A stretch of 23,464 bases of DNA. It comes from a bacterium (GTDB lineage Bacteria; Fidelibacterota; Marinisomatia; Marinisomatales; UBA1611). The stretch covers positions 1 to 23,464 of the forward strand of contig JAYPIC010000027.1 in the NCBI GenBank assembly GCA_038127595.1, in the 5' to 3' direction. The first letter of the stretch is position 1; each line of letters opens with the position of its first letter. The notes under the pieces are model-generated. The model was given only the letters and a program-made list of their open reading frames with translations. It ran no database searches and was not told the origin of the DNA. Positions 15,393 to 18,028 of the stretch are shown in pieces. The position numbers and the translations under genes were made by a program.

Positions 15393-15426
15393 AAAAAAGC
15401 CTTGTTTAGAATCTTCTAAGCAAGGC
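15393..15426 (-). terminator. Rho-independent terminator after tRNA-Gly
   Basis: Minus-strand RNA GCCUUG-C-UUAGA-agau-UCUAA-A-CAAGGC followed by UUUUUU, starting about 10 nt past the tRNA 3' end. Confidence 0.85.
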
Positions 15427-15436
15427 CTGTTTTATG

Positions 15437-15509
15437 AGCGAGAGACGAGGTTCGAACTCGCGACATCCACCTTGGCAAGGTGGTGCTCTACCAGCTGAGC
15501 TACTCTCGC
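15437..15509 (-). tRNA. tRNA-Gly (anticodon GCC), CCA not encoded
   Basis: GCGAGAGTAGCTCAGCTGGTAGAGCACCACCTTGCCAAGGTGGATGTCGCGAGTTCGAACCTCGTCTCTCGCT folds as a cloverleaf with anticodon loop TTGCCAA, T-loop TTCGAA and discriminator U73. It is followed by CAT, not CCA. Confidence 0.97.
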
Positions 15510-15531
15510 AATATTCAAATTTACATACTAC

Positions 15532-15975
15532 TTATTTATCAGACAATTCAGTTTTTGGAAAAAACTCAAGAAATTTTTCTTTTCGAACGTAAACAAAATA
15601 AGAAAATAATATAAAAATGAAATTTTCTATTAATTTTTCAAAACCAACTAATTGCCCCTCTTTTAGTCCACATCCACAATCTATATTAAAACCGCGGGCC
15701 ATGGCTTGAGCTATCATAATATTAAAAGTAATAAGCAAAACTGAGCTAATTATGATTGAACCATCAACCATAACGCCTATTATTAGCCCAGTGCCAATAA
15801 AAAACTCTAACCAAGGTAGAATCAAAGCAATAGTGTTTTCTAGCCCTAAAGGCACAATATGGTAATTTGAAATATCCCTTGCAAACTTGGCTGGGTCAAT
15901 GATTTTATCAAAACTTGCCCATAAAAAAATGGCACCTACAACAATTCGAAAAAATAAGGTTAAATATTTATTCAT
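15532..15975 (-). CDS. MauE/DoxX-family redox-associated membrane protein
   Basis: RIVVGAIFLWASFDKIIDP, LPWLEFFIGTGLIIG and the family motif RGFNIDCGCG; about 4 TMs. Confidence 0.88.
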   Translation of the reverse strand: MNKYLTLFFRIVVGAIFLWASFDKIIDPAKFARDISNYHIVPLGLENTIALILPWLEFFIGTGLIIGVMVDGSIIISSVLLITFNIMIAQAMARGFNIDCGCGLKEGQLVGFEKLIENFIFILFSYFVYVRKEKFLEFFPKTELSDK

Positions 15976-15981
15976 AAAATG

Positions 15982-16470
15982 TTAGTAATACTTTGCAGGT
16001 AGGTTATTTTCAATCCATTGCTTCCAACCGCCCTTAAATAAGTATATAGACTCAAAACCCTGTTCATACAATTGATAACTGAGTTCTTCGCTTGAACCAC
16101 AATCATCATCACTACAATATACCACGAAGGCCTTTTCTAAATTATCAAAACTATATATTTTATCAATTAGCTCGTCAAGTTCATCACTACATATAGCACC
16201 AGGTATGTGCCCATCGTTAAAATATTCCTCAGCTCTTGCATCTATAAATAGAGTTCCTTGCTCATAGAGACCTTTCGCAATCTCAATATCAATCTCTACT
16301 ATTCCAGAAGGTTCATTAGAATTAGCAAGTTCATCAATATTATCTATTTTTTTTAAATCTTTAGCTATCATACTTACAGGATTAGGTCTAATAACATTAA
16401 GGGCCAAACTAATTATAACTGAGATGGTTATTAACGCATATACTTGATACTTTGGACTATTAAAATTCAT
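15982..16470 (-). CDS. Membrane-anchored rhodanese-like domain protein
   Basis: N-terminal TM, FIDARAEEYFNDGHIPGAI, active-site loop VVYCSDDDCGSS, and C-terminal FKGGWKQW. Confidence 0.9.
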   Translation of the reverse strand: MNFNSPKYQVYALITISVIISLALNVIRPNPVSMIAKDLKKIDNIDELANSNEPSGIVEIDIEIAKGLYEQGTLFIDARAEEYFNDGHIPGAICSDELDELIDKIYSFDNLEKAFVVYCSDDDCGSSEELSYQLYEQGFESIYLFKGGWKQWIENNLPAKYY

Positions 16471-16501
16471 TATTAAAATTTCAAAAAGTTAGATCGATCA
16501 G

Positions 16502-17689
16502 TTATTTTTTTCCGTGCTTTTTTGAATGGTTGTGATTGTGGTGAGAATTTTTATTATCAGATTTTTTTGATTTATCTAGTTTTGCACATTTATCTAAAGC
16601 ATTATCAACCATAGCAAGGAGTTCTGGATCATCTTTGATCTTTTTATTGAGAGCAAAGCTTGTAAATCTCATTTTATTTTTTGCTTTTTGTAAAATAGTT
16701 TCAGCAGTGCTTAGATCATTTCTGTAACGTTTTATTAAACTCAAAATATTATCCTGCCCAGCATAAATATCTTCCAATGCCTTAGTAGGATCTTTCTTCT
16801 GAAGCCTCTTCAAACGATTATTTAACTGCTTTATTTTTTGCTCCTGAGCAGAAACATCAGATATTGGGTCTGTGCTGTTATTAATATCAAGATCTACTAC
16901 AGTTAAATATTTCCCCTGCTTTCCATTGGAGTAGACATACGGTCCTTCGGGCTTTTGGGGCATTGAAGCGCTTGTCCTGTGTGTACTTCCGCTCGTAAAA
17001 ATAAAATCTGCTTTTGGAAAATTTTTTGCTAATGAAGATTGTGAACTACGATCAGTATTAACTAATAAAATAATTAAATCCACTTTACCTTTAATTTCAT
17101 TTATTAATCTATTCCCGGATATAATATAATCTTCAACACCTACGCTGGTCATTGTATCAGGAATCATATTTGACAGCCCTATAACCCCTAAATTCAATCC
17201 ATCTCTATTTAAGGTAACATATGGCTTAAATAATAATTCTCCAGAATCTCTATATTTGATATTGCCAGATATGAAGGGAATACTGGAGTACTTATTTTCC
17301 ATCTTTTTTAAAAATGAGATTCCAGCTAAGACTTCGTATTTACCGATGTTGAGAGCACTACACCCTATTTTCTCATAACCCTTTAACATTGTTTCACATC
17401 TAAACTTTTCTGAATTAATATTATTGACATTTATATTTGTTTTACTAAAAAACATATCACCAGCATCTAATATCAATGGATCATCGCCAGCTTTTCGCAT
17501 ATCTTCAATAGCAATGAATTTTCTAGACAGACCGCCCAGAGGATTCTTTTTTCATCCACACGGATCTAGTTGACCATGCACACTACCAGTAAGGACCATT
17601 TTTATTTTTGCCTCTTTACTAGGGTTTTCACATGAAGTATTGAAGACACTCATGAACGCAATCAATATATGTATATGTAAATATTTCAT
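16502..17689 (-). CDS. UshA-like (metallophosphoesterase-fold) selenoprotein, predicted lipoprotein, 395 aa with Sec46
   Basis: ATG 17689 is in frame with the track ORF (17500). It reads MKYLHIHILIAFMSVFNTSC-ENPSKEAKIKMVLTGSVHGQLDPCG[TGA 17554..17552]KKNPLGGLSRKFIAIEDMRKAGDDPLILDAGD. The extension restores a signal peptide/lipobox, the xHG motif and GGLSR. A SECIS-like hairpin follows the UGA. Confidence 0.9.
17516..17546 (-). promoter_or_regulatory. Bacterial SECIS element (selenocysteine insertion sequence)
   Basis: mRNA after the UGA: AAAAA-GAAU-CC-UCUGGGC-GGUCU-GUCUAGA-AA-AUUC. This gives a 7-bp upper stem (with 2 G-U pairs), a 4-bp lower stem and a GGUCU apical loop starting 19 nt after the UGA. 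Confidence 0.85.
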
Positions 17690-17698
17690 ACTCTAAAT

Positions 17699-18028
17699 TT
17701 AACCACCACTGGCTTTTACTTTAAAGCCTCTTTCAATTAAAATGTTCATAACTTTTTCTCGATGATTTCCTTGAATTAAAATCTGTTTATCTTTTACTGA
17801 TCCTCCGACACCACATGCTCTTTTAAGTTCTTTTGATATTTTTATTAATAGTTGGTCATTCCCTTTCATTCCAGTTACCACGGTAAGAATTCTATTTCCC
17901 GGTAACCTTTTAAGAAGACATTTAAGATTTTGTTTAACATTAGGTATTTGCTCTATACTTTCTGATTTTTCATTTTCAAATGAAAAATTTTCATCTGTAG
18001 AGTAAACAATGTTTTTTCGTTTTTTCAT
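17699..18028 (-). CDS. yciH: Translation initiation factor SUI1/eIF1-related protein
   Basis: IVYST N-terminus, KELKRACGVGGSVKDKQILIQGNHREKV, and C-terminal GFKVKASGG. Confidence 0.92.
   Translation of the reverse strand: MKKRKNIVYSTDENFSFENEKSESIEQIPNVKQNLKCLLKRLPGNRILTVVTGMKGNDQLLIKISKELKRACGVGGSVKDKQILIQGNHREKVMNILIERGFKVKASGG

Follow-up and report, generated by a model that had tools for sequence, protein, structure and literature searches.

A conserved rhodanese–MauE pair beside an UshA-like selenoprotein gene in Marinimicrobia: a candidate variant of the extracytoplasmic disulfide relay

The locus

The window considered here is a stretch of 23,464 nucleotides (nt) from a bacterium of the phylum Fidelibacterota (order Marinisomatales; contig JAYPIC010000027.1 of assembly GCA_038127595.1), analysed over its whole length. 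On its minus strand lie five genes in the same orientation: a yciH/SUI1-family gene, the gene of an UshA-like selenoprotein, a rhodanese gene, a MauE-family gene and a tRNA-Gly(GCC) gene, with intergenic gaps of 9, 31, 6 and 22 nt (Table 1). This layout, closed by one terminator after the tRNA, had been described in an original prediction made from the DNA alone, and every element of it was confirmed, as were the paired motifs C-G-U in the lipoprotein, C-SDDD-C in the rhodanese and C-G-C in MauE. In other genomes, yciH is a member of the cluster just within the order, and the tRNA-Gly gene remains next to the selenoprotein gene even where the pair is missing. Comparison across genomes gives good support to the rhodanese–MauE pair as the robust conserved unit, to which the selenoprotein is a plausible third member.

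Table 1. Features of the locus, in the order of transcription
Feature	Position	Strand	Evidence
yciH/SUI1-family gene, 109 aa	17699-18028	-	PF01253, 56.7 bits
UshA-like exported selenoprotein, 395 aa, one in-frame TGA	16502-17689	-	NF041198, 216.5 bits
In-frame TGA, U46 of the motif DPCGU	17552-17554	-	read as selenocysteine
Bacterial SECIS-like hairpin, apical GGUCU loop at 17529-17533	17516-17546	-	fold, conservation
Single-domain rhodanese, N-terminal membrane helix at residues 9-27, C119-SDDD-C124	15982-16470	-	PF00581, 57.1 bits
MauE-family membrane protein, K24, E57, C100-G-C102	15532-15975	-	PF07291, 91.3 bits
tRNA-Gly(GCC)	15436-15509	-	
Intrinsic terminator-like hairpin and U tract	15391-15426 (hairpin 15399-15426)	-	fold

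The terminator hairpin has a folding energy of -17.2 kcal/mol (z -5.2; none of 200 shuffles equalled it); on the minus strand a U tract comes after it. A terminator scan reported the same hairpin on the plus strand only, and the stem could work in both directions. Sites resembling sigma-70 promoters occur in the window at chance level (33 found, 32.6 expected). Among RNA contigs from four of 23 listed runs, for which contigs only were used, one covers 15695-17670 and another 15775-17985, and the flanking genes are similarly deep.

Selenocysteine decoding

Judged from sequence, the UGA almost certainly codes for selenocysteine (Sec), because the source genome (G000) encodes selA (462.7 bits), selB (341.6), selD (389.3, itself with a TGA) and tRNA-Sec, and because the two glycine codons after the UGA are GGC GGT in 97 of 97 TGA forms as against one of seven Cys forms. 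These codons belong to the selenocysteine insertion sequence (SECIS); its hairpin is weak when taken alone (z -1.5), but 64 of 71 TGA segments fold with an apical GG loop. The TGA is retained in all 30 of the best loci of the taxonomic family to which the source genome belongs. The features by which bacterial selenoproteins are recognised are thus all present: a UGA aligned to Cys, a SECIS downstream and Sec machinery in the genome.

In the genus g17, Cys takes the place of U46 (CGC), and neither of the two genomes tested has selA above the cut-off. The g17 genomes are small (0.7-1.1 Mb; loci L064-L067, L121 and L122); their Cys form adjoins tRNA-Gly, they have no selA, rhodanese or MauE matches, and genes for thioredoxin and thioredoxin reductase lie a few genes downstream. 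The source genome itself holds more candidate in-frame TGAs in contexts such as UxxC and TxxU (C5:26042(-), C29:5680(+), C97:4482(-), C2:50857(-), C15:36549(+), C15:4351(+), C13:17539(+) and C115:2012(+)), in a list that includes many chance matches; they suggest a sizeable selenoproteome.

The UshA-like selenoprotein

The selenoprotein combines a lipobox-like Cys20 with the motif C44-G-U46 and a His-rich tail, and it carries no haem domain. Against the family model NF041198 it scores below the cut-off of 275 and covers model positions 3-399 of 519. It has the PCG[U/C] motif on an UshA-like domain that marks this family, here as PCGU, and shares with it GG-x-x-R, the 5′-nucleotidase N-terminal fold and an export signal, but the C-terminal four-haem domain of the model is missing; five haem-fused homologues score 358-569. 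On these alignments it is best described as a haem-less variant of NF041198 and not as a full member. The family is catalogued (NF041198, or ‘COG0737 UshA-like, CxU’) and is given no function in the parts of the two reports that list it (PMC2398784; PMC13188914); in the Global Ocean Sampling (GOS) survey it was one of the main selenoprotein families found in the sea. It is therefore an orphan family, as originally proposed, in being uncharacterised, but it had already been catalogued (NF041198; GOS 2008).

The predicted structure, with a predicted local distance difference test (pLDDT) score of 91.9, matches 5′-nucleotidases of calcineurin-like fold (Foldseek E 8e-19). A match to SoxB in the PDB has an E of 4e-9, and similarity to the SoxB profile is weak (48.6 bits). 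Dimetal hydrolases of this fold carry the motifs DxH, GD, GNHE, H and GHxH. Set against a true nucleotidase of the phylum, the selenoprotein has GKYE for GNHE, LVN for LSH (His to Asn) and TSGST for GGHSH; Ser or Asn replaces the first metal-motif Asp in 105 of 111 rows, and only the Asp of AGD survives. The likeness to UshA and SoxB thus lies in the fold of the N-terminal domain, whereas most metal ligands, the catalytic His and the C-terminal substrate domain of UshA/SoxB-type proteins are absent. On these grounds an active nucleotidase was rejected.

The chalcogen motif, by contrast, is kept. C-G-U/C shows no variation across 36 rows, nor do GGLxR and DxG, and a lipobox-like Cys stands ahead of the motif in 73 of 99 sequences. 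The conserved basic residues K47, R56 and K260 suggest a small-anion substrate, most plausibly a reduced sulfur compound. The His- and Lys-rich C-terminal tail (16505-16550), modelled with low confidence, occurs in members of families f1 and f17 and is missing from many others.

Matches at E 1e-8 are present in 224 of the 251 genomes of the phylum, the weakest of them being ordinary nucleotidases. Outside the phylum, four haem motifs were found in 56 of 68 called homologues (80 loci) and PF13435 in 25 of 46 long representatives; the source genome gave no match to PF13435. The haem fusion in relatives ties the selenoprotein family to an electron acceptor, and the selenoprotein is inferred to be a redox protein, dependent on such an acceptor and built on a scaffold without catalytic function. 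One large multihaem protein, and no other, was seen in the source genome: the product of a 993-aa open reading frame (ORF) with eight CxxCH motifs (C14:12804-15782(+)), a possible alternative acceptor.

Other UshA-like forms were met in the same searches. A second Sec-containing paralogue clade in family f1 (L104-L109) has no lipobox-like Cys, and the pair is not nearby. In Desulfobacterota, haem-less forms with CxxU (L347, L352, L356, L359, L365, L375, L378 and L380) are probably close to NF049981, and family f25 has a CxxC form (L271).

The rhodanese–MauE pair

The single-domain rhodanese is predicted with high confidence (pLDDT 92.4) and matches the rhodanese fold. Both its Cys residues are invariant in 31 rows, and the loop reads YCSDDDCG in 32 of 79 sequences. 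Thiosulfate sulfurtransferases of the GlpE and PspE type have a single-Cys loop with a basic residue. Membership of that group does not apply here, given the loop CSDDDC and a score of 32.3 bits against the GlpE model (cut-off 102); TsoB (NF045694; 20.1 bits, cut-off 805) and NF041203 (51.1 bits, cut-off 115) were rejected on their curated cut-offs as well.

In MauE, K24, E57, C100 and C102 are invariant in 24 rows, and a crude topology from hydropathy and charge sets the CGC on the outer side of the membrane, in the stretch that joins helices 3 and 4. A mau cluster was considered for the locus and rejected. Close homologues of this MauE carry the label ‘Candidatus Marinimicrobia bacterium’, and Fidelibacterota make up most of the two Atlas clusters that best match the rhodanese.

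The two genes travel together. The rhodanese is present in 165 and MauE in 175 of the 251 genomes, with nearly equal counts family by family; the extra MauE matches include seven weak ones in f21, of which one was fetched and proved to be of a MauE-thioredoxin type. In this protein (L267:1429-2370), MauE is fused to a thioredoxin-like CxxC domain (BT_3928-like, 104.6 bits) and does not belong to a rhodanese pair. In all 17 loci fetched from other classes, and in 21 of 30 MauE loci of Desulfobacterota, MauE has the rhodanese immediately upstream; of the 21 adjacent rhodaneses in Desulfobacterota, 13 have a two-Cys loop. Rhodanese–MauE fusions are encoded in G092 and G155, directly upstream of the selenoprotein gene, and two more were found among three other matches.

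All four fusions examined have one added membrane helix between the domains. Given the basic N-terminus of MauE, this helix would bring the CGC loop to the outer side of the membrane, where the rhodanese domain would also lie. For the three proteins of the locus, prediction puts all Cys and Sec motifs on the outer face of the membrane, in line with the extracytoplasmic placement first suggested; the topology is crude, hydropathy having given only two helices in P0003 itself and four to six in the fusions. Predictions of a MauE–rhodanese complex scored 0.30 and 0.28 against a mark of 0.32 and are neutral on binding. From the pairing, the fusions and the topology, the rhodanese is likely to be the partner of MauE. 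The same evidence tips the balance slightly towards a redox shuttle that stands in place of the thioredoxin-fold DsbA.

Further fusions in Desulfobacterota (L314, L315, L302, L293 and L304) join a cyclic-nucleotide-binding domain, a Cys-less rhodanese and MauE, or a cation diffusion facilitator and MauE. In G047, a genome of the same genus as the source, the MauE gene is broken by a frameshift (L014:3206-3645), which is either real or an assembly error.

Direction of the chemistry

Two CGC-MauE proteins restore disulfide formation in Escherichia coli lacking dsbB, and both Cys residues are required (bioRxiv 10.64898/2026.03.05.709764). Those proteins have a CGC between helices 3 and 4, a Lys in helix 1 and a Glu in helix 2; a Phe after the CXC is highly conserved and was not shown to be essential. 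The partner of most MauE proteins is left open there, a thioredoxin fold being expected, and the words ‘rhodanese’, ‘selen’, ‘operon’ and ‘Marini’ do not occur in the main text (bioRxiv 10.64898/2026.03.05.709764). The MauE of the window shares with these proteins PF07291, the CGC after helix 3, and the Lys and Glu, the last two matched by helix position and not by alignment. It differs in having Gly rather than Phe after the CGC and, as its partner, a CxxxxC rhodanese that is sometimes fused to it.

The genomic setting is comparable as well. A search of the source genome (95.8% complete) for DsbB, VKOR, PF13462 and PF01323 gave no match, and PF13462 was not matched in 19 of 25 tested genomes that carry the pair. 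Lineages without MauE have no real DsbB and no VKOR match either, so that no pattern of substitution emerges. Elsewhere in the phylum, DsbA-like genes with one in-frame TGA occur in f7 and f17-f20 (L326-L331), and G071, G083 and G092 encode probable VKOR-DsbA fusions.

By analogy with the preprint, which concerns other species, the MauE of the locus is very probably a DsbB-like oxidase. Since CGC-MauE can replace DsbB, the pair likely oxidises rather than reduces. The proposal that MauE recycles the selenoprotein or the rhodanese keeps its force as regards a redox partnership, but on the preprint's evidence the direction is oxidative, and MauE would re-oxidise and not reduce them. A relay running the other way, in which MauE sends electrons outward and keeps the selenoprotein reduced for repair or detoxification while the His-rich tail binds metal, appears very unlikely. 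Selenoproteins are often reductases, which would suit it, and the same preprint cites one report of MauE as a possible reductase; both Cys residues, however, serve disulfide formation in the complemented strains (bioRxiv 10.64898/2026.03.05.709764), and the tails of f1 and f17 members that could bind metal have no counterpart in many families.

Transfer of sulfane sulfur or selenium is another chemistry open to a rhodanese. A persulfide on Cys119 would be handled by the SoxB-related selenoprotein, and MauE would pass electrons to quinone as DoxD does in thiosulfate:quinone oxidoreductase. The Cys at the catalytic position is indeed invariant, basic residues are conserved close to C-G-U, the selenoprotein bears a weak similarity to SoxB, and in Mycobacterium tuberculosis DoxX partners SseA (PMC6930017). 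Yet the loop is acidic and holds a second Cys, whereas ordinary rhodaneses met in the same searches read YCxxGxRS. The SoxB-type metal site is lost, and the 44 recurrent neighbours include no recognised sox or dsr gene. This reading is improbable, if less so than a reducing relay. Where the original prediction had left redox chemistry, sulfur or selenium transfer and metal handling side by side, thiol/selenol redox is the best reading and transfer, in view of the acidic CxxxxC loop, the less likely one.

Linkage of the selenoprotein to the pair

Linkage was counted in genomes for which both genes are listed with coordinates, at a distance of at most 2.5 kb; f3, f21, G225, G200, G145 and G136, which have no listed rhodanese, were excluded. 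On this count, selenoprotein and rhodanese are linked in 71 of 71 genomes of the order and 16 of 16 of other orders, that is, in 87 of 87 of the class. Of the 30 loci from the taxonomic family of the source genome, 26 have the rhodanese next after the selenoprotein; the remaining four belong to genus g7, and in one of its genomes (G013) the pair lies about 10 kb from the selenoprotein. The gene order is selenoprotein-rhodanese-MauE-tRNA in the order and rhodanese-MauE-selenoprotein-tRNA in f17-f20. The yciH gene is upstream in most loci of the order and was not seen in those of other orders. A metagenome search with a pattern of MauE and then the selenoprotein returned seven loci, of which six are AT-rich with best matches in the class and one is a chance match; the pattern is narrow (one Cys codon, CGCF, one spacing range) and does not exclude loci in other phyla. 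Protein-pattern scans of a genome collection gave no matches.

In 81 Desulfobacterota genomes, MauE accompanies nine of 19 with a haem-less form, one of 16 with only haem-fused forms and 19 of 44 with none, in a hand count that omits G316 and G350 as truncated and whose members are kin and not independent. This gives a hint only that MauE replaces the haem domain, haem-less forms not being enriched over the background.

A candidate oxidising relay

The reading preferred here is an extracytoplasmic oxidising relay: electrons would leave the selenoprotein at C-G-U, move to the rhodanese CxxxxC and on to the MauE CGC, and finally reach the quinone pool. That the three middle genes form such a relay is an even call at best and perhaps slightly under. 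Its MauE and rhodanese steps have been discussed above. Its selenoprotein step draws on the class-wide linkage and on the haem fusion in relatives: the protein could be a redox enzyme with a C-G-U that alternates between the selenol-thiol and selenenylsulfide states, and the pair could serve it as the fused four-haem cytochrome serves its relatives. This assignment is tentative, falling a little short of an even chance.

Several observations weigh against the relay. The MauE of the window, like most of its family, reads CGCGL and does not have the Phe that the preprint finds conserved, CGCF being found in other families. Eight of the 21 Desulfobacterota rhodaneses beside MauE have no YC-x-C motif, so that the dithiol is dispensable in some pairs, and four exported WCxxC thioredoxin-like proteins in the source genome are possible MauE partners instead. 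The selenoprotein is linked to the rhodanese in none of 30 genomes of other classes, many of which have the genes on separate contigs. Six-frame searches of flanks of 1.5 to 6 kb found no rhodanese or MauE near the selenoprotein in 80 loci of other phyla, 50 of Desulfobacterota and six of unlinked paralogues. In Desulfobacterota, selenoprotein and pair occur together no more often than expected by chance (11 of 81, 13.7 expected). Each gene order corresponds to one clade in a quick tree, which implies roughly a single origin followed by a single reorder; g7, f3, f21 and G225 would then be cases of unlinking or loss. Haem-less selenoproteins also occur where the rhodanese is absent or scarce (rhodanese matches in 0 of 20 in f3, 0 of 9 in f21, 0 of 6 in f22 and 5 of 33 in f26). 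Finally, tRNA-Gly(GCC), a neighbour no less constant than the pair, adjoins the selenoprotein gene in many unlinked loci, and part of the synteny may therefore stem from a conserved tRNA locus. The synteny on which the three-gene proposal depended does reach well beyond close relatives, across the phylum and into Desulfobacterota for the pair, but for the selenoprotein within the class only.

Some of these points lend weight to a different account, in which the pair is a self-contained disulfide former with other clients and the selenoprotein a mere neighbour, fixed once at the tRNA-Gly locus in the ancestor of the class; at most, MauE would make a structural disulfide in it. The lack of linkage outside the class, the independence of pair and selenoprotein in Desulfobacterota, the lineages that retain the selenoprotein without the pair and the separation in g7 all agree with it, as does the association of the selenoprotein with tRNA-Gly and tRNA-Ala, which reaches further than its association with the pair. 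A structural disulfide would also fit the co-occurrence of Cys110 and Cys368, which in 103 sequences (kin and not independent) are both present in 55, single in 22 and 10 and both absent in 16. Against a mere neighbour stands an adjacency that outlived a reorder in the 87 genomes of the class while yciH and other flanking genes turned over. A general folding role sits ill with exported proteins that show no excess of even cysteine numbers (74 of 205 Cys-containing among 331 predicted exported), by a crude test with a simple signal-peptide rule (z 1.7 exported, 2.6 cytoplasmic). Of the alternatives, the neighbour account is the one to be taken seriously, though it is a minority view and less credible than the relay.

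Two known systems offer partial parallels to the relay. TsoB is listed as a rhodanese/DsbD fusion-like selenoprotein with UxxxxU (PMC13188914). Like the locus, it brings together a membrane redox domain and a rhodanese domain whose chalcogen pair is spaced x-xxxx-x; here, however, the score is far below the cut-off, the residues are Cys and not Sec, and the partner is MauE and not a DsbD-like domain. The DoxX-SseA-SodA complex of M. tuberculosis is reported to be a membrane oxidoreductase complex (PMC6930017). It likewise unites a DoxX-clan membrane protein, a thiol oxidoreductase and a third redox enzyme, but its DoxX belongs to another subfamily (PF07681, 23.2 bits here) and it has neither a selenoprotein nor an exported CxxxxC rhodanese. 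Presumably SseA is itself of rhodanese type.

Genomic surroundings

The flanks of the locus (607-14503 and 19433-22044) look ordinary; they include a protein with an FGE-sulfatase domain and two MORN-repeat proteins. Other genes there we take to be those of a leucyl-tRNA synthetase, a GldAFG-like ABC cluster, a GroES-like ORF and peptidases.

Significance

Each part of the locus belongs to, or varies, a catalogued family, and the sequences point to a real and conserved locus that would be a new variant of the disulfide relay. The original prediction knew of no characterisation of the three-gene module, and a search of open-access text likewise found no paper that joins selenoprotein, rhodanese and MauE. 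In its widest form the proposal is more doubtful than the relay itself: a rhodanese fold may act as the DsbA equivalent of a widespread, quinone-coupled MauE pathway that, in place of a four-haem cytochrome, re-oxidises a near-universal exported Marinimicrobia selenoenzyme built on a dead nucleotidase scaffold, and that is kept even in streamlined genomes of 1 Mb. It would then be a periplasmic selenol oxidoreductase of a kind not yet described. Gene pairing and fusion would name the two-cysteine rhodanese as the partner of MauE in at least two phyla, and an orphan selenoprotein of the ocean would gain a redox partner that can be tested, within a three-gene locus small enough to be tested in E. 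coli.

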